Both the position numbers and the translations under genes were made by a program. Positions 2,342-62,849 of a DNA stretch of 64,000 nucleotides are shown piece after piece. Position 1 is the stretch's first letter. Each line of letters opens with the position of its first letter. The notes beneath the pieces were generated by a model. That model was not told the DNA's origin, searched no databases, and saw only the letters and a list, made by a program, of their open reading frames with translations. Source of the DNA: Escherichia virus TH40; sequence record MT446411.1. The stretch is one strand, 5' to 3'.

Positions 2342-2725
2342 TTACTCTAGTGTTAACAGATACTTAGTTTGAAAGAAAACTCCAACGATATCGTCCAGAG
2401 TCGATTGAATAGCCTTAGGTACAACTTTATAGACTCTTTCAGAGCTTTTAATCATTTCATCTAAAAACAAAATTGTATCTTTCGGCAAGTCCGAGGCGGA
2501 CGGTAATGCAGCTTTGTATTGTTTCCCACTGTAACCTAACCATTGTTCACTGAACTGGTCGAGTGGACCTTGGATTTCTGTGAAGTAGAAATCATAAGCT
2601 TTATGGCGGGCGTAACTTTTGGTTTCAAGATGGGCGGACTTAAAATATGCTAAAGAGGTTAATAGCCACCCAATGTATGAATCCACCTCAGACCCACGAC
2701 CTGTTACGAAATCATCGAATTTCAT
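2342..2725 (-). CDS. hypothetical protein
   Basis: 127-aa ORF. Confidence 0.5.
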   Translation of the reverse strand: MKFDDFVTGRGSEVDSYIGWLLTSLAYFKSAHLETKSYARHKAYDFYFTEIQGPLDQFSEQWLGYSGKQYKAALPSASDLPKDTILFLDEMIKSSERVYKVVPKAIQSTLDDIVGVFFQTKYLLTLE

Positions 2726-3008
2726 CTTCCAATTTTACCTTCATTAATTTAGCGTATTCGACTGCAGCAGCCCGGCCATCAATTTGACATGTGATTTCAT
2801 TTACACATTGACTCTTATTGTTCCATTCAGTTTTAATAAAAGCCCAAAATTGTTCGGACTGCTCGACGCTGGGTTCTTTGAATTGCGAATAGATTTGCAT
2901 CGCACTATCTGCATATTGTGTAAATTTACCATCTGTAGCAGAGGACAGATTTGGGCCTAAACAGCCCATTAGTAATAGACTTAGAGAAAGTCCTCGAATA
3001 AGGTCCAT
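2712..3008 (-). CDS. putative lipoprotein
   Basis: ATG at 3008 preceded by AAGGAG; N-terminus MDLIRGLSLSLLLMGC has signal peptide plus lipobox (L-M-G-C). Confidence 0.5.
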   Translation of the reverse strand: MDLIRGLSLSLLLMGCLGPNLSSATDGKFTQYADSAMQIYSQFKEPSVEQSEQFWAFIKTEWNNKSQCVNEITCQIDGRAAAVEYAKLMKVKLEDEIR

Positions 3009-3082
3009 AAAGGACTCCTTATTGTTGGTCATGATTACGCTTTGCAGCCTTAACATAGCGGAATACTAGTTAGTAACTGTAT

Positions 3083-3358
3083 TTATAATCTTTTAAACTT
3101 GAAACAATATATTGCAAATAAATCAGAAAAATGTCTATCAACCCATATTCTTTGCACTGGACTAGTAACAGTCAGCATATAATGTGCTTTTTGTAAATTT
3201 ATTCCATTTTTATTCGGGCATTCTTTATTAACAGAATGGTACGTGCTTGCTACTATTTCAATTTCCCTTTCATATCTCTCGCTATCTGTTTGTGTGGGGA
3301 TAAATGCAATTCCAGCAATAACAAAAATAGAGATATACGTCCAAATCTTATATATCAT
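3083..3358 (-). CDS. hypothetical protein with N-terminal transmembrane helix
   Basis: 91-aa ORF; IWTYISIFVIAGIAFIPT hydrophobic stretch. Confidence 0.45.
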   Translation of the reverse strand: MIYKIWTYISIFVIAGIAFIPTQTDSERYEREIEIVASTYHSVNKECPNKNGINLQKAHYMLTVTSPVQRIWVDRHFSDLFAIYCFKFKRL

Positions 3359-3365
3359 AAGGACC

Positions 3366-3938
3366 TCAGCTTGTCAATTCGAGCCAATGTTTCCTGCATA
3401 AAGATACGTACGATTCATTCCCACCAACTAACACTTGCTCGCCGTCCTTTACAGCAGCACCGTCGATTACTCGAGCGGTCATGGTTGCTTTCCGGCCGCA
3501 ATGGCAGACGCCCTTTAATTCAACCAGTTTATCCGAAATAGCCAGAAGTCTGGCTGAACCGGGAAATAACTGACCCCGAAAATCTGTTCTTAGCCCGTAA
3601 CACATAACGGGGATATTGTAATTATCAACCACTCGTGCTAACTGGTCAATTTGCTCTGGTAGCAAAAATTGAGCTTCATCGACCAGGACACAATGGATAT
3701 CCTTTTGAGACTCGGCCCATTTATAGAATTCAAACAGGTTCATGTCGGCCGTTACCAGGTTTGCTTCCTGGCTAATACCAATACGTGATTTAATTTCAGA
3801 TTCCGAGTCCCGATTATCAATAACAGGTTTTAGCAAAAGCACACTCATTCCACGCTCTTTATAGGAATAAGCTGCAGTCAGCAATGAAGCTGTTTTGCCT
3901 GCATTCATTGCTGCGTAATGATAAATTAAACTCGCCAT
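3366..3938 (-). CDS. tk: thymidine kinase
   Basis: 190 aa; P-loop AAMNAGKT and C-terminal zinc-ribbon Cys pairs typical of type II thymidine kinase; position as in T4. Confidence 0.9.
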   Translation of the reverse strand: MASLIYHYAAMNAGKTASLLTAAYSYKERGMSVLLLKPVIDNRDSESEIKSRIGISQEANLVTADMNLFEFYKWAESQKDIHCVLVDEAQFLLPEQIDQLARVVDNYNIPVMCYGLRTDFRGQLFPGSARLLAISDKLVELKGVCHCGRKATMTARVIDGAAVKDGEQVLVGGNESYVSLCRKHWLELTS

Positions 3939-3947
3939 ATCACCTTC

Positions 3948-4133
3948 TTATTCTGTAATACTTTCCAGATAATTTTCTAAATCGTCTGAAGCCTTATTAA
4001 GGGCTTCTAGCGCTTTATAATAGTCTTCACGGGAGTAATATTCTGTATGAAGTTCTTCGTCGTATTCGCTTTTAGCATCAACAACAGTTTCAATCATATC
4101 CAGAATTTTATTTTTCTGTTCTTTAGTAATCAT
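3948..4133 (-). CDS. hypothetical small acidic protein
   Basis: 61-aa ORF. Confidence 0.4.
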   Translation of the reverse strand: MITKEQKNKILDMIETVVDAKSEYDEELHTEYYSREDYYKALEALNKASDDLENYLESITE

Positions 4134-4141
4134 AATATACC

Positions 4142-4327
4142 TTAAAGAGTATTCACATAAGCAATTAATTCGTTTTCTTTCTCATCAAACCGATTAGCAA
4201 ATTCTTCCTGATGTTCGGCATCTATCGGGCCGTATCCATCATAAAAAGCGTTCGCTTCCGTATGCTCGTCCAAAAGCTCATGGATAAGCTCAAACAATCT
4301 ACTTTTCTGACTAATACTTAAACTCAT
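4142..4327 (-). CDS. hypothetical small acidic protein
   Basis: 61-aa ORF. Confidence 0.4.
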   Translation of the reverse strand: MSLSISQKSRLFELIHELLDEHTEANAFYDGYGPIDAEHQEEFANRFDEKENELIAYVNTL

Positions 4328-4530
4328 TTCGGTTCACCTTGTTTTACAAAGTCTGGATACGGTTGAAACCCGGAATAGAAACCAGCGCCTGCATGATTCA
4401 CACACCCTTTATTAGAACAATAGCACCAATAATCAAAGTCACATATCATTTCATCGTTGCATAAAGCAAAAACAACTGGCCATTTACACTTTTCACAGTG
4501 AGCATTTTTAAGAATACTAGTTTGACTCAT
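4324..4530 (-). CDS. hypothetical Cys-rich small protein
   Basis: 68 aa with multiple CxxC-like pairs. Confidence 0.4.
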   Translation of the reverse strand: MSQTSILKNAHCEKCKWPVVFALCNDEMICDFDYWCYCSNKGCVNHAGAGFYSGFQPYPDFVKQGEPK

Positions 4531-4981
4531 AATCCACCACTATCAAATCAATATCAGGAGTAAACATATCAATTAACCGGGAAACCTTATCCCAATCACC
4601 ACCTGCAATACCACAACCAATCCTGGGAATATAAATCACAGGCTTGAACAAAAGTGATTCTGCTTGTCGATTTAATTCTATCATGCAATTTACTAAAGCA
4701 CCATAATCCAGATTTGGACCCGGTTCATACTGGGTATAAAGGTTATAACACATACCAAATCCAGTTGGTTTATGTTTAAAAACGATAGACATATCACCGA
4801 GTTTTTCCCGGGAACCGTACTCAGTTGATGTCTTATCCATTTCTAAAATTTTTGGGTAAGCCTTTGCCAGTTGACCAGCAACGCCTGAACCCATTGTATG
4901 GAAGCAGTTACAGCCATGAGCTATGATGTTTCCTTCGAGAAAGAGGGCGACAATATCGCCCTTAATATAGTTAACAATCAT
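4517..4981 (-). CDS. macro-domain protein (ADP-ribose binding/processing fold)
   Basis: 154 aa; GDI...IIAHGCNCFHTMGSGVAGQL and IPRIGCGIAGGD match macro-domain motifs (compare E. coli YmdB N-A-A-N...GGGV and ISTGVYG). Confidence 0.6.
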   Translation of the reverse strand: MIVNYIKGDIVALFLEGNIIAHGCNCFHTMGSGVAGQLAKAYPKILEMDKTSTEYGSREKLGDMSIVFKHKPTGFGMCYNLYTQYEPGPNLDYGALVNCMIELNRQAESLLFKPVIYIPRIGCGIAGGDWDKVSRLIDMFTPDIDLIVVDYESN

Positions 4982-5337
4982 TTAGAGTTCAATCCTCTAT
5001 TATAGGAATCGACTAACCTGTCAACCATACTGGTGCAGGCCGCTTTATATTTGGCACTCGACAGAATACAATCCATTTCAAATAGTTTCTTTTCATATTT
5101 GTTGGATAAAGTACTCTTTTTCATAAGAGTGTGTTCAACATCATTTTGGCCGTCTTTATATGCCGCGGTGAGCTTGGCACTAAACCGGATTACACAATCC
5201 ACATTGCTTGATGCGCAATAATCTTTGGCCGTCCTCGTTGCATATTCTATGATGCTATTATTATCATCGCTCTGTACTGAAGCTATTCCTCCCGTGCTGA
5301 ATACTAACCCTATGGCTAAAGTTATGACTCTTACCAT
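4978..5337 (-). CDS. hypothetical secreted protein
   Basis: 119 aa with N-terminal signal-peptide-like MVRVITLAIGLVFSTGGIASVQS. Confidence 0.5.
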   Translation of the reverse strand: MVRVITLAIGLVFSTGGIASVQSDDNNSIIEYATRTAKDYCASSNVDCVIRFSAKLTAAYKDGQNDVEHTLMKKSTLSNKYEKKLFEMDCILSSAKYKAACTSMVDRLVDSYNRGLNSK

Positions 5338-5880
5338 TTAATCCACCATTTTTAATAGGCCTCGTGATTTTAAGTAGTTAGCTTTTTCTAGGACCTGTGA
5401 AGCATACGTATTTCCAGCTTTCACATTCCACCCTGCGTTATATGATGATAGTGTTTTTCTTATGTCCCCCTTGTGAATGTTCAACCAGTATGAAAGCTCA
5501 ATATAAGCCCAGCGCGCGCTGTTTTCTCTCTTGCTTATCATCTTGATTATTTCTTTATCTGTCATTGTCCACCCAACCTGTTTCACGCGTTCGCGCACGG
5601 TTGGAAGATAATTTTGGAATATACCATATGCATGATGCTTATCTTTATTTAATCCTGTATTAACACCAGCAGATGATTCCTGCCAGGTTAAACCAGCCAT
5701 GATATATCCCAAACCATTATGTTGGTGCGGATTTTCTTTGTACTTACCATTTTTCTGGAACTGTTCTCCAAATGCATACGCATATTGAAGATTTTCCATC
5801 TGTTCATTACTGAAAGTAGGCTCTACGCTATGGGCAGACATACTAACTGTCAATAGTAAGGTGGCGATTACTTTTTTCAT
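5338..5880 (-). CDS. lytic transglycosylase-like protein with signal peptide
   Basis: 180 aa; signal peptide MKKVIATLLLTVSMSAHS; TWQESS ... AYGIFQ resembles SLT-domain catalytic E-S and G-[LI]-x-Q motifs. Confidence 0.55.
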   Translation of the reverse strand: MKKVIATLLLTVSMSAHSVEPTFSNEQMENLQYAYAFGEQFQKNGKYKENPHQHNGLGYIMAGLTWQESSAGVNTGLNKDKHHAYGIFQNYLPTVRERVKQVGWTMTDKEIIKMISKRENSARWAYIELSYWLNIHKGDIRKTLSSYNAGWNVKAGNTYASQVLEKANYLKSRGLLKMVD

Positions 5881-5890
5881 GAATTCCTCA

Positions 5891-6349
5891 TTAGATATAA
5901 ATCACTTTTGTGCTAATTTTTCCTTCCAGACGATTAGAGTTAACAAACGCCATACGACAACACATGGTCGGAGACTTCCCAGGAAGAGCCGGGTTAACTG
6001 TCATTCCTAGCCATAAGTTCTTGTCTGTGATTTCCAGACGAAGTGGACGGTAGTTCACATTCGGGTCAATTTGTGCTTCAACTTCTGGAAGCGGTTCCAT
6101 TTTTAAGAATTCAACAATTTCTTTTACATGTGGTGTGATTTTTCCAAACAAGTCAAAAACATATTGTTCGTCAATTTCACGTTGGATTGCACGGTCCAAC
6201 AGGTGCGGACTGTACTTAATGAAGAATGCTTCAAGGCCTGCTTCTTTACAAGCCTTGTTGATAGCATTATTAATTTTGAGGAACTCCGTTTCAAAAATAC
6301 GACGAAGTTTATTGCGGCGAATGTAAACACTTGAATCGATAGTAGTCAT
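5891..6349 (-). CDS. regB: RegB endoribonuclease
   Basis: From ATG at 6349 (GGAG SD) the protein MTTIDSSVYIRRNKLRR...HLLDRAIQREIDE...RLEITD...CRMA closely matches T4 RegB. Confidence 0.8.
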   Translation of the reverse strand: MTTIDSSVYIRRNKLRRIFETEFLKINNAINKACKEAGLEAFFIKYSPHLLDRAIQREIDEQYVFDLFGKITPHVKEIVEFLKMEPLPEVEAQIDPNVNYRPLRLEITDKNLWLGMTVNPALPGKSPTMCCRMAFVNSNRLEGKISTKVIYI

Positions 6350-6392
6350 GATTATCTCCTTTTGTTTGATGGGATAATCATAACTCATTTCA
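6350..6392 (-). promoter_or_regulatory. early-promoter-like cassette
   Basis: minus-strand gagttatgattatcccatcaaacaaaaGGAGataatcATG; member of repeated family. Confidence 0.35.
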
Positions 6393-7189: not shown

Positions 7190-7478
7190 ATTTTTTCCAG
7201 TCACTAATTAATCGCACATCCTGGTCATACGTCAGGAGGCTACGAGTTATAATACCCTTACATGGTCCAGAAATAAATTCCAGAGTAAAGTAAGGAACCA
7301 ACTTCATCAAGCGAATACTCGGAGCAGTGCAACGAAATCTGGACCCAATAAAAGGTCCAGACAAAAACACATACTCAAAGAAATTAGCTTTATTAAAGAT
7401 TTCAAAATTCTTTACGAAATCCTCAGACCTAACCTTTGGAATAAAATAGATTTGGTCAAAAAGCTCTTCATGGGTCAT
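7182..7478 (-). CDS. hypothetical protein
   Basis: 98-aa ORF. Confidence 0.4.
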   Translation of the reverse strand: MTHEELFDQIYFIPKVRSEDFVKNFEIFNKANFFEYVFLSGPFIGSRFRCTAPSIRLMKLVPYFTLEFISGPCKGIITRSLLTYDQDVRLISDWKKYV

Positions 7479-8023
7479 TATTGCATTCCAATCACAAAAA
7501 ATTGAGGACGAACTGTTTCACCCGTTTTAAAACAATGAGCATGACAGCAGTGTTGTACAGTTTTCATATGGATATCGTAAATCTTGTCCATATCAGGAGC
7601 TTTAATAGGTTCATCAATTATATACAATACGCGTGAAAGTGCAAGGCCACGGAATTTAGAACCTTCATTACCGATAAAGCTACGTAATGAATCATGGAAA
7701 AGCCGGTAACGAATATCTTCCGCGCTAAAACGAATAAAATCATTTTTGATAGAATCGGATGAAATTCTTGCATAAGCCGAGGTATTAGACAGGACAATTA
7801 CTGTACCTCCGTCATAAATCCAGTTAGCGGCAAAATTAGTTACTGCAGTAGATTTACCTGATTGTCGCCCGCCATCCATACGGAGTGTGCAGTATTCTTT
7901 GAGCAAGACTTCCATTGGAGGAATATAACAATCGGTCTTACAAAGTTCTTCTATTCGAGCATCAGAATGGTGGGTAAAAGCATTCATCAGGGATAGATAA
8001 GGTCCAGTTAAAAAAGTTCTCAT
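7478..8023 (-). CDS. P-loop NTPase-like hypothetical protein
   Basis: 181 aa; Walker-A-like GGRQSGKST and Walker-B-like LYIIDEP. Confidence 0.5.
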   Translation of the reverse strand: MRTFLTGPYLSLMNAFTHHSDARIEELCKTDCYIPPMEVLLKEYCTLRMDGGRQSGKSTAVTNFAANWIYDGGTVIVLSNTSAYARISSDSIKNDFIRFSAEDIRYRLFHDSLRSFIGNEGSKFRGLALSRVLYIIDEPIKAPDMDKIYDIHMKTVQHCCHAHCFKTGETVRPQFFVIGMQ

Positions 8024-8110
8024 ATTGTTTCTCTTAAGGTTTTGGGGCCATTCCTTGGCACATTAATTCGTCCATGTATCCGAATGTAAACCCCTTACCG
8101 CACTCGGGCT
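8024..8110 (-). promoter_or_regulatory. putative early promoter
   Basis: minus-strand GTTTAC -35-like, about 17 nt, ATTAAT -10-like, then AAGAG SD and ATG. Confidence 0.3.
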
Positions 8111-19084: not shown

Positions 19085-19160
19085 TGGTCGAGACAGTAGG
19101 AATCGAACCTACGACCCAGGACTTAGAAGGTCCTTGCTCTTCCTTCTGAGCTATGCCTCG
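19085..19160 (-). tRNA. tRNA-Arg (anticodon UCU)
   Basis: 76-nt cloverleaf folded by hand: acceptor CGAGGCA/TGTCTCG, D-arm GCTC-AGAAGGAA-GAGC, anticodon stem AGGAC/GTCCT with loop CTTCTAA, T-arm GTAGG-TTCGATT-CCTAC, encoded CCA. Confidence 0.8.
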
Positions 19161-19293: not shown

Positions 19294-19367
19294 TGGTGGC
19301 CCTGGGTGGAATCGAACCACCATCCAGCGATTATGAGTCGCTCGCTTGACCGTCCAGCTACAGGGCC
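19294..19367 (-). tRNA. tRNA with CAU anticodon (Met, or Ile if lysidine-modified as in T4)
   Basis: 74-nt cloverleaf: acceptor GGCCCTG/CAGGGCC perfect 7 bp, anticodon stem AGCGA/TCGCT with loop CTCATAA, T-arm GGTGG-TTCGATT-CCACC, encoded CCA. Confidence 0.75.
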
Positions 19368-53131: not shown

Positions 53132-54691
53132 ATGAAAAAGAATGCATTAGTTCAAAAATGGTCCGCTCTGCTGGAAAACGAAGCTCTTCCGGAAATCGTT
53201 GGTGCTTCTAAACAAGCTATCATCGCTAAAATCTTTGAAAACCAGGAACAAGATATTCTGACCGCTCCTGAATACCGTGACGAAAAAATCTCCGAAGCAT
53301 TTGGTTCTTTCCTGACCGAAGCTGAAATCGGTGGTGACCATGGTTATGATGCTACCAATATCGCTGCTGGCCAGACCTCTGGTGCAGTAACTCAGATTGG
53401 GCCGGCAGTTATGGGTATGGTTCGTCGTGCTATCCCGCATCTGATTGCGTTTGATATTTGTGGCGTACAGCCTCTGAACAACCCGACTGGCCAGGTATTT
53501 GCCCTGCGTGCAGTTTACGGTAAAGACCCTGTAGCTGCTGGTGCTAAAGAAGCTTTCCACCCGATGTATGCTCCAAATGCTATGTTCTCTGGTCAGGGCG
53601 CTGCTGAGGCTTTCGAAGCTCTGGCTGCAAGCAAAGTTCTTACCGTTGGTAAAATTTATTCTCACTTCTTCGAAGCAACCGGTGCCGCGCACTTCCAGGC
53701 TGTTGAAGCTGTAACCGTTGATGCTGCTGCTACTGATGCCGCTAAACTTGACGCCGAAGTTACCAAACTGCTCGAAGCTGGTAAGCTGGCCGAAATCGCT
53801 GAAGGTATGGCTACCTCTATCGCCGAATTGCAGGAAGGCTTCAACGGTTCTACTGATAACCCGTGGAACGAAATGGGCTTCCGTATCGATAAACAAGTTA
53901 TCGAAGCTAAATCCCGTCAGCTGAAAGCAAGTTACTCCATCGAACTGGCACAGGACCTGCGCGCTGTTCATGGTATGGATGCTGATGCCGAATTGAGTGG
54001 TATTCTGGCTACCGAAATTATGCTGGAAATCAACCGCGAAGTTATCGATTGGATTAACTACTCCGCACAGGTTGGTAAATCTGGTATGACCAACACCGTT
54101 GGCGCTAAAGCTGGTGTGTTTGACTTCCAGGACCCGATTGATATCCGTGGCGCTCGTTGGGCTGGTGAAAGCTTCAAAGCTTTACTGTTCCAGATTGATA
54201 AAGAAGCCGCTGAAATCGCTCGTCAGACTGGCCGTGGTGCAGGTAACTTCATCATCGCTTCCCGTAACGTAGTTAACGTACTGGCTGCAGTTGATACCTC
54301 CGTATCTTATGCTGCTCAGGGTCTGGGTAAAGGTTTCAACGTTGACACCACTAAAGCTGTGTTCGCTGGTGTTCTGGGTGGCAAATACCGTGTATACATC
54401 GACCAGTATGCTCGTGCAGACTATTTCACCATCGGTTACAAAGGCGCTAACGAAATGGATGCTGGTATCTACTACGCACCATATGTTGCACTGACCCCGC
54501 TGCGTGGCTCTGACCCGAAAAACTTCCAGCCGGTTATGGGCTTCAAAACCCGTTACGGTATCGGTATTAACCCGTTCGCTGACCCGGTAGCTCAGGCTCC
54601 AACCAAGCGCATTCAGAACGGCATGCCGGACATCGTTAACAGCCTCGGCTTGAACGGTTACTTCCGCCGCGTATATGTTAAAGGAATTTAA
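53132..54691 (+). CDS. 23: major capsid protein gp23
   Basis: 519 aa (T4 gp23 521 aa). Confidence 0.95.
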   Translation: MKKNALVQKWSALLENEALPEIVGASKQAIIAKIFENQEQDILTAPEYRDEKISEAFGSFLTEAEIGGDHGYDATNIAAGQTSGAVTQIGPAVMGMVRRAIPHLIAFDICGVQPLNNPTGQVFALRAVYGKDPVAAGAKEAFHPMYAPNAMFSGQGAAEAFEALAASKVLTVGKIYSHFFEATGAAHFQAVEAVTVDAAATDAAKLDAEVTKLLEAGKLAEIAEGMATSIAELQEGFNGSTDNPWNEMGFRIDKQVIEAKSRQLKASYSIELAQDLRAVHGMDADAELSGILATEIMLEINREVIDWINYSAQVGKSGMTNTVGAKAGVFDFQDPIDIRGARWAGESFKALLFQIDKEAAEIARQTGRGAGNFIIASRNVVNVLAAVDTSVSYAAQGLGKGFNVDTTKAVFAGVLGGKYRVYIDQYARADYFTIGYKGANEMDAGIYYAPYVALTPLRGSDPKNFQPVMGFKTRYGIGINPFADPVAQAPTKRIQNGMPDIVNSLGLNGYFRRVYVKGI

Positions 54692-54714
54692 TCCTAGATT
54701 AAGTTAAATAAAAA

Positions 54715-54741
54715 GGGACCCTTGAGGTCCCTTTCTTGTTT
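54715..54741. terminator. bidirectional intrinsic terminator
   Basis: gggacc-cttga-ggtccc then tttcttgtttt on plus strand; lies between convergent gene 23 (+) and ORF 54742..55023 (-). Confidence 0.65.
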
Positions 54742-55100: not shown

Positions 55101-55108
55101 TATAAATA
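55101..55108 (+). promoter_or_regulatory. T4-type late promoter TATAAATA
   Basis: exact motif upstream of first gene 24 copy. Confidence 0.6.
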
Positions 55109-55134
55109 AAGTATATCACAAAAGGAAAGCGCAA

Positions 55135-56415
55135 ATGGCAAAGATTAACAAATTACTGCGCGAGTCAACTATTACTACCAGCAACTCCTTGGGCCGCCCG
55201 AATCTTGTTGCTTTGACCCGCGCTACGACTAAATTGATTTACCGCGATATCATCGCTGAACAACGTACTAACCAACCTGTTGCTGCACTGTATGGTGTTA
55301 AATATCTTACTCCTGATAATGAATTCAGTTTCCAGACGGGCGCTACTTATGGAGGCGAAGTCGGTTCTAAAGACCGCACAACTATTCCAGAATTAACTAC
55401 AGCCACTCAGCCTGTGGCTAAAGGCGAATATGTAAAATACCAAAATATCGTTTACAAAGCTCTGGTTGATAATCCATTTGCATCGACCACAGAAACAGTG
55501 TTATCTGATGTTCTGCAAGAAGGTCTTATTGCATCGACTATTCGCCTTGTTCCTGATGCCGCACACACTGAAAAATTCGAAGCCGGTGATGTTGAAATTA
55601 GCAATGCTGTATTCCAGGTTAATAAATGGAATGCTCCGGTTAAAACACGTAAATTGAAAACTGCATTAACTGTTGAACTTGCTCAGGATATGGAAGCAAA
55701 TGGTTTTAACGCTCCTGCTTTCTTGGAAGACCTGCTTGCCACTATTATGGCAGATGAAATTAACAAAGATGTTCTTCAGTCTCTTATTACCGTTTCCAAG
55801 CGTTATAAAGTAACTGGCGTTTCTGACAATGGCACCATCGATTTAACATATGATGCAGCTCCAGAAGGCGCACGTAAACTGTATGAACTGGTTTGCGAAA
55901 TGAACTCCGAAATTCAGAAAACTACATCTTATTCCGGTACCTTTGTTGTTGCCTCTAGCCGTGTTGCTGCTATGTTGGCCGGTTCTGGTTGGTTGAAACA
56001 CAGACCAGAAGACGAACAGTGGCTCCCCGAAACAGCGTACGGTTATTTGATTAATGGCCTCCCTGTATTCTGTGATGTTAACAGTCCATTGGATTATGTA
56101 ACTGTTGGTGTTAAAGAAAATTACGGCGGAAACGAAGTCGTAGGCTCAATTTTCTATGCTCCTTATACCGAAGGCCTGGACTTGGATGATGAAGAGCACG
56201 TTGGTGCGTTTAAGGTCATTGTGGACCCAGACAGCTTGCAGCCATCTATCTCTCTGATGGTTCGTTACGCACTTTCAGCTAACCCGTACACCGTTGCTAA
56301 AGACGATAAAGAAGCTCGTATTATCGATGCAACCAATATGGATTTAATGGCCGGTCAGAGCAATATGTCTTATCTGCTCGGTGTTAAACTTCCGCCAATC
56401 ATTTATGAGGCGTAA
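55135..56415 (+). CDS. 24: capsid vertex protein gp24
   Basis: 426 aa; MAKINKLLRESTITTSNSLGRPNLVALTRATTKLIY close to T4 gp24. Confidence 0.92.
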   Translation: MAKINKLLRESTITTSNSLGRPNLVALTRATTKLIYRDIIAEQRTNQPVAALYGVKYLTPDNEFSFQTGATYGGEVGSKDRTTIPELTTATQPVAKGEYVKYQNIVYKALVDNPFASTTETVLSDVLQEGLIASTIRLVPDAAHTEKFEAGDVEISNAVFQVNKWNAPVKTRKLKTALTVELAQDMEANGFNAPAFLEDLLATIMADEINKDVLQSLITVSKRYKVTGVSDNGTIDLTYDAAPEGARKLYELVCEMNSEIQKTTSYSGTFVVASSRVAAMLAGSGWLKHRPEDEQWLPETAYGYLINGLPVFCDVNSPLDYVTVGVKENYGGNEVVGSIFYAPYTEGLDLDDEEHVGAFKVIVDPDSLQPSISLMVRYALSANPYTVAKDDKEARIIDATNMDLMAGQSNMSYLLGVKLPPIIYEA

Positions 56416-57699
56416 ATGCAAAAGATTAATGCACTAATTCACGAATCAACATTAACGGCGGCCAACCAGGTCGCCCGTCCTAATTTGCTTTCTTATACTC
56501 AGGCTACGAATAAACGAATTTTTAAAGCACTCGTGGCCGAACAGAAAACTACCCAGCCTGTTGCAGCCCTGTATGGTGTTCGTGTTCTGAACCCAGATGA
56601 TAAAATGACTTATCTCGGTGGAGCAACATTTGCAGGTCAGATTGGTATGTTCGAGCGTAAGAATATTCCAGAATTTACAAACAAAGACGAAGCTTATGCA
56701 GTCGGCGATATGTTCCAGTTTGAAAGTGTTGTGTTCAAAGTTTTGGAAGCATCCCCATTCGCCGGTACACTCGAAACTGATTTAGGTGAAGTTATTTCTG
56801 AAGCCATTGCTGCTGGGCATATAAGAATGATGTCAGATGCTGCTTTCACTGATAAATTTGAAAAGGGGCATCCTGAAATTGCTGAAGCTGGTTTTCGTAT
56901 CGATAAATGGCAGACTGAAGTTAAATCCAGAAAGTTGAAAACTTCTTTAACTGTCGAGCTTGCCCAGGACCTGGAAGCAAACGGTTTTGATGCAACAGAC
57001 TTCATCGATAATATTCTCGGCATTCAAATGGCAGAGGAAATTAATAAGGATGTATTGCAATCCCTTATTACTGTTAGTTCCCGCTTCAAGGTGCAAGGTG
57101 TTTCGGAAAAAGGTGTATTGAATCTTACTGACCCGAAATATGATAATGCCCAGGACCGCGCACGAACCCTGTATTATTATATGTGTGAAATGAATTCTGC
57201 AGTTCAACGTCAGACTTCGTTTGCTGGTACATATGCAGTTGCTTCTTCCCGTTGTGCAGCTATTTTAGCCGCTTCTGGCTGGGTTGAGAAAAAGGAAGAC
57301 CAGGATGAATTGGCCTATGGTGTTCTGAAGAACGGTTTGCCTCTTTACGCTGATATGAATAGTCCATGCGATTATGTTATTGTTGGTGTAAATGCGGATA
57401 TGGGTGAAGGTCAGACGGTCGCATCTTTATATTATGCGCCTTATACGGAAGGACTTAGCGAAGTTGATGATGAGGGTGATACCTCGGTTGGGGAATTCAA
57501 GGTTATTGTTGACCCCGAAAGCTTACAACCTACGGTTGCACTGTTAGCTCGTTATGCTTTGACTGCGAACCCTTACACCGTTGCTAAAGATGATAAAGAA
57601 GCTCGCCTTATTGATGGAGCTGATATGGATAAGATGGCTAACCAAAGTCAATTGAGTTCTTATCTTGGTGTTAAACTTCCACCGCTGGAAAAAGAATAA
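56416..57699 (+). CDS. capsid vertex protein gp24 paralog (second tandem copy)
   Basis: 427 aa; MQKINALIHESTLTAANQVARPNLLSYTQATNKRIF... collinear with upstream gp24 but diverged. Confidence 0.85.
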   Translation: MQKINALIHESTLTAANQVARPNLLSYTQATNKRIFKALVAEQKTTQPVAALYGVRVLNPDDKMTYLGGATFAGQIGMFERKNIPEFTNKDEAYAVGDMFQFESVVFKVLEASPFAGTLETDLGEVISEAIAAGHIRMMSDAAFTDKFEKGHPEIAEAGFRIDKWQTEVKSRKLKTSLTVELAQDLEANGFDATDFIDNILGIQMAEEINKDVLQSLITVSSRFKVQGVSEKGVLNLTDPKYDNAQDRARTLYYYMCEMNSAVQRQTSFAGTYAVASSRCAAILAASGWVEKKEDQDELAYGVLKNGLPLYADMNSPCDYVIVGVNADMGEGQTVASLYYAPYTEGLSEVDDEGDTSVGEFKVIVDPESLQPTVALLARYALTANPYTVAKDDKEARLIDGADMDKMANQSQLSSYLGVKLPPLEKE

Positions 57700-57719
57700 G
57701 GGCCTTGCGGCCCTTTTTT
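57700..57719. terminator. bidirectional intrinsic terminator
   Basis: gggcc-ttgc-ggccc with flanking T/A runs, between convergent gp24 paralog and rnlB. Confidence 0.65.
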
Positions 57720-58725: not shown

Positions 58726-58855
58726 AATCTCTCACTTTTGATGTTATAAATATCATTATAAATTAGACCCGCTATACTTTCTTTCTCTGAAAGGAATTAA
58801 TAGTCACAAAGGGTCTAGAACCATTATACCGCATTTTTATTTGAAGCAAAAAGGG

Positions 58856-61295: not shown

Positions 61296-61313
61296 GATGA
61301 ACCTCGGTTAGTG

Positions 61314-61321
61314 TATAAATA
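61314..61321 (+). promoter_or_regulatory. T4-type late promoter TATAAATA
   Basis: exact motif 29 nt upstream of uvsW ATG. Confidence 0.6.
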
Positions 61322-61349
61322 TAGATATATTTATTACCTTGGAATCATC

Positions 61350-62849
61350 ATGGATATTAAAATCAACTTTCTAAATTTTAGTCACGTGCATGTTGAATGT
61401 GAAGATGGAATCTTCTACGAACTCCGTGATTACTTCAGCTTCGAAGCTGAAAACTATCGCTTCAATCCAAAATTCAAGCAGGGAGTTTGGGACGGACGAA
61501 TCCGCCTCCTGGATTACAATCGTAAATTACCATACGGTTTGGTTAATCAAATTAAAAAGTTCGCTGACCAGTTTGGCTATTCATTCTGGATTGACCCACA
61601 AATCACCGAGAAAGAAGAAATCTCTCGCGAAGAATTCGACAAATGGGTCGAGTCAAAAGAAATCTATTCAGGCAATACTAAGATAACGCCCCATTGGTAT
61701 CAATCTGACGCCGTATATGATGGTCTGGTCAACAGAAGAAAGATTCTGAACTTACCTACGTCTGCAGGTAAAAGTCTCATCCAGGCGCTTCTGGCGCGAT
61801 ATTATCTCGAGAACTATGAAGGCAAGGTACTTATCCTTGTTCCTACAACCGCGCTTGTTGACCAGATGATTAATGACTTTGTTGATTATCGTCTGTTCCC
61901 TCGTGAAGCTTGTCTGGGTATTCGTTCTGGTACCAAACGCGATTCTGATGCGATGATTTATGTATCGACTTATCAGACGGCTGTAAAACAACCTAAAGAA
62001 TGGTTTGAACAGTTTGGTCAGTTTATGAATGACGAATGTCATATGGCTACAGGTAAATCAATTTCGACGGTTATCGAAGGCCTTACGAATTGTATGTTTA
62101 AATTTGGTTTGTCCGGTTCACTCCGTGACGGCAAAGCCAACCTTATGCAATATATGGGTCTGTTTGGTGATATCTTTAAACCAGTATCAACATCTAAATT
62201 GATGGAAGATGGTCAGGTCACTGACCTTAAAATAAATAGTATTTTCCTTCGTTACCCTGATGAATTTACCGTTAAAATGAAAGGTAAAACTTATCAGGAT
62301 GAAATTAAGGTAATTACAAAAGCTACACGCCGAAATAAATGGGTAACAAATCTTGCTCTCAAGCTTGCTAAAAAAGATGAAAACGTCTTTTTGATGTTTA
62401 AGAATATCGAGCACGGTAAATCGATGTTTGAAATGCTTAAGGAAGCTGGTCATGAGAAAGTGTATTATGTTTCCGGGGAAGTTGATACCGAAACTCGTAA
62501 TGCATTAAAGGTCATGGCAGAGAATGGAAAGGGAATTATCGTTGTAGCTTCATATGGCGTATTCTCGACGGGTATTTCCGTTAAAAACCTCCATCATATT
62601 ATTTTCGCCCACCCGGTCAAGTCAAAGGTAATTGTACTCCAGACAATTGGTCGTGTGCTTCGAAAACATGAATCCAAATCACAAGCAAACGTTTTTGATA
62701 TCGTGGATGATATGGGGGTTAAACCTAAATCGGTAAATGCTAAAAAGAAATATGTTCATTTGAACTTTGCCCTAAAACATGGTCTTGAACGTATACAACG
62801 ATATGCTGATGAACGTTTTAACTATGTAATTAAACAGGTGGAAATTTGA
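61350..62849 (+). CDS. uvsW: UvsW ATP-dependent DNA/RNA helicase
   Basis: From ATG 61350: MDIKINFLNFSHVHVECEDGIFYELRDYF..., DExH helicase motifs (LPTSAGKS, MNDECH) match T4 UvsW. Confidence 0.92.
   Translation: MDIKINFLNFSHVHVECEDGIFYELRDYFSFEAENYRFNPKFKQGVWDGRIRLLDYNRKLPYGLVNQIKKFADQFGYSFWIDPQITEKEEISREEFDKWVESKEIYSGNTKITPHWYQSDAVYDGLVNRRKILNLPTSAGKSLIQALLARYYLENYEGKVLILVPTTALVDQMINDFVDYRLFPREACLGIRSGTKRDSDAMIYVSTYQTAVKQPKEWFEQFGQFMNDECHMATGKSISTVIEGLTNCMFKFGLSGSLRDGKANLMQYMGLFGDIFKPVSTSKLMEDGQVTDLKINSIFLRYPDEFTVKMKGKTYQDEIKVITKATRRNKWVTNLALKLAKKDENVFLMFKNIEHGKSMFEMLKEAGHEKVYYVSGEVDTETRNALKVMAENGKGIIVVASYGVFSTGISVKNLHHIIFAHPVKSKVIVLQTIGRVLRKHESKSQANVFDIVDDMGVKPKSVNAKKKYVHLNFALKHGLERIQRYADERFNYVIKQVEI
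62827..62845 (+). repeat. 19-bp direct repeat, copy 1 (3' end of uvsW)
   Basis: taattaaacaggtggaaat, identical to 63519..63537. Confidence 0.8.

Follow-up and report, generated by a model that had tools for sequence, protein, structure and literature searches.

An already annotated, conserved pair of capsid vertex genes in the head module of Escherichia virus TH40

We examined a 64,000-nucleotide (nt) stretch of Escherichia virus TH40 (record MT446411.1; hereafter, the window), in which an initial annotation had described two adjacent, collinear genes as a tandem duplication of the gene for the capsid vertex protein gp24. The two genes are intact open reading frames (ORFs) of 426 and 427 amino acids (aa), as that annotation had stated, and are referred to here as copy 1, or a-type, and copy 2, or b-type. 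The source phage is Gaprivervirus-like: the 3.1-kb gp24 region is 99.4% identical at the nucleotide level to that of Yersinia phage vB_YenM_P8, ~99% identical to those of phages UPEC07, TH22, and TH55, and 92 to 94% identical to those of VR7, VR20, VR25, and VR26. The pair sits in a T4-type head module, with gp20, gp67/68-like, gp21, gp22, and gp23 genes and a small minus-strand ORF on the upstream side and with rnlB, 24.2/24.3-like genes, hoc and inh (both on the minus strand), and uvsW downstream (Table 1). Gene 23 followed by 24a and 24b on the same strand and then by rnlB is the defining layout of a vertex gene pair known from other phages, and the same layout is found here. The second start had been placed 1 nt after the first stop, and the two genes do adjoin directly, with the TAA of copy 1 at 56413 to 56415 and the ATG of copy 2 beginning at 56416.

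Table 1. Positions of the vertex gene pair, its signals, and neighboring features in the window
Feature	Position	Strand	Basis or remark
gp23 gene	53132-54691	+	ORF list
Terminator-like hairpin after gene 23, bidirectional; upstream boundary of the gene 24 unit	54710-54736	both	Stems of 12 and 9 pairs, one per strand, with a T run behind each
Small ORF between genes 23 and 24, 93 aa	54742-55023	-	Match to phrog_6003 (function unknown, E = 9e-47)
T4-type late promoter TATAAATA	55101-55108	+	Motif search; 27 nt upstream of the copy 1 ATG
Shine-Dalgarno-like AAGGAAAG ahead of copy 1	55122-55129	+	Read from the sequence; conserved in related phages
gp24 copy 1 (a-type; corresponds to 24a in JS98 and 24(1) in VR7, its orthologues)	55135-56415	+	426-aa ORF
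Copy 1 N-terminal decapeptide MAKINKLLRE, with L-R-E before Ser11	55135-55164	+	Alignment
GAGG Shine-Dalgarno for copy 2	56407-56410	+	Formed within the terminal Y-E-A codons of copy 1; 5 nt ahead of the second ATG
gp24 copy 2 (b-type; corresponds to 24b in JS98 and 24(2) in VR7, its orthologues)	56416-57699	+	427-aa ORF
Copy 2 N-terminal decapeptide MQKINALIHE, with I-H-E before Ser11	56416-56445	+	Alignment
Bidirectional intrinsic terminator GGGCC-TTGC-GGCCC plus T run	57698-57719	both	Directly after the copy 2 stop; common to convergent rnlB
Hoc-like head decoration protein, 377 aa	59487-60620	-	Repeated immunoglobulin-like segments
uvsW-like helicase ORF	61311-62849		Called from GTG
Late-promoter motif TATAAATA ahead of the likely uvsW-like ATG	61314-61321		
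tRNA gene	19088-19160	-	Rfam scan
tRNA gene	19297-19367	-	Rfam scan

Both ORFs are gp24 family members. A pairwise alignment of the copies, which had been proposed as a check on the duplication, gave 55% identity across the full length (BLASTP, E = 1e-173), a likeness far beyond chance, and both proteins match Pfam PF07068 (329 and 327 bits). Copy 1 was said to be the closer of the two to T4 gp24, which our comparison bears out (69 to 70% identity versus 55 to 56% for copy 2). Against the T4 gp24 structures 1yue and 5vf3, copy 1 (E = 6e-194) and copy 2 (E = 4e-148) both align over residues 1 to 424, while their matches to gp23 chains are far weaker (E of 1e-10 to 1e-12, residues 156 to 393). 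An AlphaFold model was made for copy 2 (predicted local distance difference test score, 74.9; predicted template modeling score, 0.71), and the fold of copy 1 was judged from its 69% identity to 1yue. The best match of the copy 2 model was 5vf3_a, gp24 of the mature T4 capsid (template modeling [TM] score of 0.82/0.84, E = 2.5e-49), compared with TM scores of 0.55 to 0.59 for gp23 chains; the predicted fold is the gp24 version of the HK97-like fold. Full-length homology far above that to gp23 and a short propeptide motif, by which the gp24 family is recognized, are present in both copies.

The L/I-x-E consensus is well established for T4, in which the propeptide of gp23 is 65 residues long. 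Each of the two copies begins with a decapeptide that ends in this motif (Table 1), and (L/I)-x-E directly before Ser11 is retained in every a- and b-type sequence that we aligned. The prohead protease takes the first 10 residues off T4 gp24 (PMC9958956), and by alignment the decapeptide of each copy corresponds to that 10-residue propeptide and would be cleaved by gp21 in this phage as well.

As in T4, gene 24 here is a late gene directly downstream of gene 23 with a late promoter of its own. The T4-type late promoter motif TATAAATA has 21 matches in the window, compared with 5.3 expected, and one of them lies just upstream of copy 1. A promoter for the first copy only had been claimed, and this is what we found: no plus-strand match occurs between 55108 and the next one at 58745, and hence none lies ahead of copy 2. 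The motif also precedes the first gp24 gene in JS98, VR7, Melville, F48, IME523, dhabil, T4, KP1, and HX01. An internal promoter for copy 2 was considered and rejected, with neither TATAAATA nor a convincing sigma-70-like site in a useful position. The stop and start codons of the pair are adjacent, overlapping, or 1 nt apart in all five genera examined, and the GAGG ahead of the second start is kept in four of these five (Gapriver-, Dhaka-, Gelderland-, and Kanagawavirus), with a weaker GTGAG in Marfavirus. With one late promoter, a coupled stop/start, and one terminator, both proteins are predicted to be translated, with translational coupling, from one late mRNA, and the pair forms a single late bicistronic unit (late promoter, 24a, coupled 24b, and terminator). 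Since co-transcription and translational coupling recur in every genus examined, a condition-dependent vertex composition, one of the possibilities raised in the initial annotation, is disfavored at the level of gene expression.

Paired vertex genes are already known as an annotated feature and have been in GenBank since the JS98 record. They are called 24a/24b in JS98 (Dhakavirus), 24(1)/24(2) in VR7 (Gaprivervirus), "capsid vertex protein I/II" in the VR phages, and vertex protein I/II in S16-, Kanagawavirus-, and Marfavirus-type phages; two vertex proteins are annotated in Melville and S16 (Gelderlandvirus), F48 and Marfa (Marfavirus), IME523 (Kanagawavirus), and dhabil. Our literature search returned nothing on the function of the pair or on which copy is in the virion, and only the genome announcement for Melville mentions the duplication, stating that it is in tandem in Melville and S16 (PMC6486254). 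Gene for gene, the window pair is orthologous to the pairs of JS98, VR7, VR5/20/25/26, S16, Melville, and CGG4-1. Relative to JS98-, VR7-, and S16-type pairs, copy 1 is 89 to 97% identical (89% to JS98 24a) and copy 2 is 95 to 98% identical (95 to 96% to JS98 24b), with the same gene order, stop/start junction, promoter, and flanks (gene 23, small minus-strand ORF, 24a, 24b, and rnlB). No substantive difference separates the window pair from these pairs, of which it is another member.

In a survey of related phages for one versus two copies, also proposed with the annotation, a tblastn search restricted to close relatives of copy 2 picked up b-type orthologues (≥78% identity) in no fewer than 113 phage records, while T4, Mosigvirus, Moonvirus, and Karamvirus have a single gp24. 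At E ≤ 1e-60, gp24 was found in 1377 records, with matching places exceeding records by 118; ~8% of gp24-bearing records hold two copies, nearly all of which are explained by the a/b family. In a large protein search, b-type sequences at only 66 to 69% identity were recovered from Erwinia phage FBB1 and from metagenome contigs, which have the same gp23, gp24, gp24 order with overlapping stop/start codons. The a-type gene precedes the b-type gene in all 22 of 22 loci (isolates and IMG/VR). Gene order and tight start/stop coupling are constant across the genera examined, and the order and junction are kept in at least six phage groups.

Phylogenetic analysis placed the two copies in different clades. 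In neighbor-joining gp24 trees built first from 26 and later from 32 sequences, all of the second copies fell in a single clade (100% bootstrap) that spans at least six phage groups and extends to the Erwinia phage FBB1-like genomes. The first copies share a clade with the lone gp24 proteins of T4, Mosigvirus, Moonvirus, and Karamvirus (79 to 96%); within it, this T4 group is sister to the copy 1 clade (89 to 96%), and the FBB1-like first copies branch below both. Copies 1 and 2 were never sisters (0%; 0 of 900 replicates), and the first copies as a group without T4 received 0 to 3% support. These values were stable across three distance corrections, with gap-free columns, and after removal of the most variable region. 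Conserved synapomorphies follow the same pattern, with 7 to 10 uniting copy 1 and the T4 group, versus 1 for copies 1 and 2 and 2 for copy 2 and the T4 group. A 4-residue insertion (KPEDDKYLSQNAYG in T4) is common to copy 1 and the T4 group, and neither copy 2 nor the outgroups have it. The a and b subtrees mirror one another.

On the evidence of these trees and shared characters, a and b are two separate, old paralogue lineages, the T4-type single gp24 is nested in the a-lineage, and T4-type phages have probably lost the second copy. In T4 itself, the gap between gene 24 and rnlB is 30 bp and holds no b-type gene or remnant. The simplest history would be one duplication before the split of the FBB1-like, T4-type, and JS98-type phages, with the b gene retained in the FBB1-like phages and in Marfa-, Kanagawa-, Gelderland-, Dhaka-, and Gaprivervirus and later lost on the branch that leads to T4, Mosigvirus, Moonvirus, and Karamvirus.

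Pairwise ratios of nonsynonymous to synonymous substitution rates (dN/dS; Nei-Gojobori, seven genomes of five genera) were 0.04 to 0.15 for copy 1, 0.02 to 0.10 for copy 2, and 0.04 to 0.20 for gp23, with synonymous sites saturated between genera. Between a and b, dN was ~0.37 in all seven genomes and dS was 1.4 to 2.6 (saturated). Invariant alignment columns are more numerous in the b clade (312) than in the a clade (298). These values indicate strong purifying selection on both copies and decay of neither, as the initial annotation had judged from the intact frames (dN/dS of 0.02 to 0.15 overall). A pseudogene or decaying state of copy 2 was considered separately and ruled out by its dN/dS and by a conservation at least equal to that of copy 1. 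Gene conversion between the copies was likewise rejected: the longest matches between them extend over 197 nt (72% identical) and 80 nt (70%), and a-b dN is constant.

"Tandem duplication with a diverged second copy," as the pair was initially described, is correct in that the genes are tandem paralogues but misleading as to their relationship, given that the copies never group as sisters and that the b clade has full support. We give almost no credence to a recent local duplication in which copy 2 would be a fast-diverging or decaying duplicate of copy 1. Such an event could produce what is seen here in part: two neighboring, collinear genes of the same length, a second copy that resembles T4 gp24 less than the first does, and a b stem with ~3 times the fixed derived changes of the a stem. 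However, the copies are not each other's closest relatives in any bootstrap replicate, the synapomorphies and the shared 4-residue insertion join copy 1 to the T4 group instead, and the same a/b split is found in seven genomes of five genera, at the same dN, and in the FBB1-like phages. The low dN/dS of copy 2 also argues against it, as does the absence of high-identity nucleotide or gene-conversion tracts between the copies, whose best shared stretches are 70 to 72% identical.

Considering all of these results, the best overall explanation, which we hold to be probable although well short of certain, is an ancient and already annotated gp24a/gp24b pair in which the vertex job is divided. The two proteins would be synthesized jointly during late infection, built into the prohead shell as penton (vertex) subunits, and trimmed by the gp21 protease; their co-expression, intact fold, propeptide, strict linkage, and long purifying selection point to entry of both into the shell and maturation of both by gp21. 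The vertex job would then be split between a and b (subfunctionalization), most likely as separate a- and b-pentamers or as a fixed mixture; in b, the N-terminal arm and the loops of the A domain would be fitted to other neighbor contacts. There are 45 fixed differences between a and b, densest at T4 residues 11 to 60 (20% of positions) and 241 to 340 (17%). Fixed derived changes number 25 on the b lineage, 9 on copy 1, and 6 on the T4 group, and 8 of the 25 on the b lineage fall in the first 60 residues, that is, in the N-arm. The b-type also has a 3-residue insertion at residues 353 to 355 and a 4-residue deletion after residue 296. In T4, the N-terminal arm is ordered on the outer surface after expansion and touches neighboring subunits, and the gp23 mutations that bypass gp24 lie at the A-domain interface within a capsomer, where one subunit meets the next (PMC9958956). 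A burst of change in the N-arm and A-domain regions followed by stasis is the pattern that would be expected if b had adapted to different neighbors.

Between the two arrangements, separate pentamers at nonequivalent vertices of the prolate head seem somewhat more likely than fixed heteropentamers, because a five-membered ring cannot alternate two subunit types. A more specific proposal is that a and b form homopentamers at geometrically nonequivalent vertices, for example, with one type at the single apical vertex, across from the portal, and the ten shoulder vertices taken by the other, and that the single gp24 of T4 is a secondary simplification by gene loss. We consider this full scheme rather improbable as stated. 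If it were true, these would be the first tailed phages with position-specific penton paralogues.

Several points weigh against an ancient pair with a divided vertex job. The gp24 trees are based on neighbor joining and bootstrap only. In the gp23 tree, the two-copy genera are not monophyletic, with Melville placed with Jiaodavirus and Winklervirus and F48 placed with Karamvirus, at nodes supported by 65 to 74%. Support for where the single Jiaodavirus gp24 falls relative to a and b is 10 to 55%. Codon adaptation is moderate for both copies (0.47 for copy 1 and 0.41 for copy 2) and says little on stoichiometry. On the virion content of two-gp24 phages, no proteomic or cryo-electron microscopy paper was found in a search that did not extend to the JS98, VR7, S16, and Fokine 2005 papers, and a PDB search returned gp24 structures from T4 only and no capsid structure of a two-gp24 phage.

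Unlike the gp23 tree, the a and b trees of gp24 each group the two-copy genera together at 100%, which hints at modular exchange between gene 23 and the 24a-24b cassette, albeit across gp23 nodes of the modest support given above. Used as a stand-in for the species tree, the gp23 tree has too little resolution to tell loss from cassette transfer. It is possible, if doubtful, that the b gene came by lateral transfer from a deep-branching T4-like phage and was placed behind a gp24 gene already present, or that an a-b cassette spread among genera. Such an origin would account for the scatter of two-copy genera among single-copy genera in the gp23 tree; the b clade joins the a clade without support (13 to 28% for a plus b), and mosaicism is common in T4-type phages. 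It is harder to reconcile with the mirrored a and b subtrees and with the lack of any phage carrying a b-type gene as its sole gp24 in 50,697 phage records, in IMG/VR, or among the examined loci from a search of 5.8 billion proteins, and the gp23 nodes concerned are those supported by only 65 to 74%.

The single gp24 of Jiaodavirus (Klebsiella phage KP1; 3001 to 4281 of its locus) is 64% identical to each copy. The 60 residues at its N terminus and the 80 at its C terminus side with a/T4 (13:1 and 11:1 informative sites, respectively), and its middle is more b-like (17:9). Such a pattern may reflect old recombination or the fusion of an a/b pair; just as plausible is a lineage that predates the duplication and has kept ancestral states, given that the outgroups share many of the b-like states of the middle.

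Two other accounts of the pair differ from a divided vertex job in what the b-type does. In the first, the a-type alone would build the eleven vertices and the b-type would have moved to another capsid-related job, for instance by acting transiently in the prohead or in assembly (perhaps to trigger gp21 activation), by occupying a special site as a minor part of the shell, or by serving as a decoy. The burst of fixed changes in the N-arm and A-domain region could reflect such a move, T4-type phages do well with an a-type alone, and gp24 attachment is thought to trigger protease activation, so that a separable subrole is possible in principle (PMC9958956). The b-type is nevertheless full length, has the whole gp24 fold (as measured by its TM scores to gp24 of the mature T4 capsid), keeps the propeptide motif, and has neither gained nor lost a domain, and its translational coupling with the a-type fits a shell subunit made in similar amounts; we judge a separate job for b to be unlikely. 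In the second, a and b would be interchangeable and mix at random, with the pair maintained for the sake of robustness or dosage. Co-transcription and coupling of the genes would fit this, as would the flexible vertex occupancy of T4, in which gp23 bypass mutants can replace gp24 (PMC9958956, PMC10580926). Redundant copies, however, would not be expected to last as two distinct conserved lineages through synonymous saturation, and the 45 fixed differences have never been homogenized, while the b-type genomes all also hold an a-type (22 of 22 loci). Interchangeability strikes us as distinctly improbable. A division of the vertex job between a and b remains the reading that we favor.

The T4 system is the natural comparison for this pair. 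T4 gp24 (PDB 1YUE, 5VF3, and 7VRT) shares with both copies the family, the fold, the 10-residue propeptide, the position after gene 23, and the late promoter, but T4 has a single gp24 gene and a single pentameric vertex protein, which belongs to the a-lineage in our trees. The older gp23-to-gp24 duplication represents the same process one level up, in which a copy lying beside its parent became specialized for a different geometry (PMC9958956, PMC10580926). There, the proteins are ~20% identical and their hexamer and pentamer roles have been demonstrated, whereas for a and b, at 55% identity, we infer the division of labor. Outside viruses, CsoS4A and CsoS4B of alpha-carboxysomes are adjacent paralogous genes whose products are both vertex-capping pentamers of one polyhedral shell; they differ in having the BMC-P rather than the HK97 fold, in belonging to a cellular shell, and in undergoing no maturation cleavage. 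The gp23-to-gp24 duplication and, beyond viruses, these carboxysome pentamer paralogues are the closest functional analogies.

Other features of the neighborhood were recorded alongside the pair. The counterparts of the small minus-strand ORF between genes 23 and 24 are annotated as hypothetical in JS98 (orf173) and VR7 (ORF190c), and in the T4 record examined, homing endonuclease genes fill this slot. Between related phages, gp23 dS is about one-third of that of either gp24 copy (0.12 versus 0.38 for the window and VR7), and gp23 has the highest G+C content at third codon positions (0.45) of eleven ORFs compared at 49 to 63 kb of the window; both fit a major capsid gene under strong codon selection. 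The Hoc-like protein ends with the conserved C-terminal E-S-R-N-G capsid-binding motif (described in PMC10385173), and the Hoc of JS98, at the same position, is only ~280 aa long, versus 377 aa here. In the FBB1-like contigs, gp24b is followed by two extra plus-strand ORFs (at 2676 to 4506 of one locus and 4845 to 6382 of another), one of which (332 to 346 aa) has a faint collagen-repeat match, and VR7 has a collagen-triple-helix-like plus-strand ORF (7244 to 8086 of its locus) slightly further downstream, where this window has hoc. These collagen-like ORFs may be alternative head-decoration genes of the same neighborhood. For the uvsW-like ORF, the likely true start is an ATG 13 codons downstream of the GTG (MDIKINF..., ~61350). 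The two tRNA genes in Table 1 are the only matches in an Rfam scan of the window, which gave none within the gp24 locus.

The existence of the pair is not news. What the comparison adds is that the pair is strictly conserved, co-expressed, and strongly selected, and it raises the structural question of how a prolate HK97-type capsid uses two different penton proteins. With the single gp24 of T4 falling inside one of the two paralogue lineages, the textbook capsid with one vertex protein may be a derived, reduced state, which would be a modest but real adjustment to the account of T4 head evolution.

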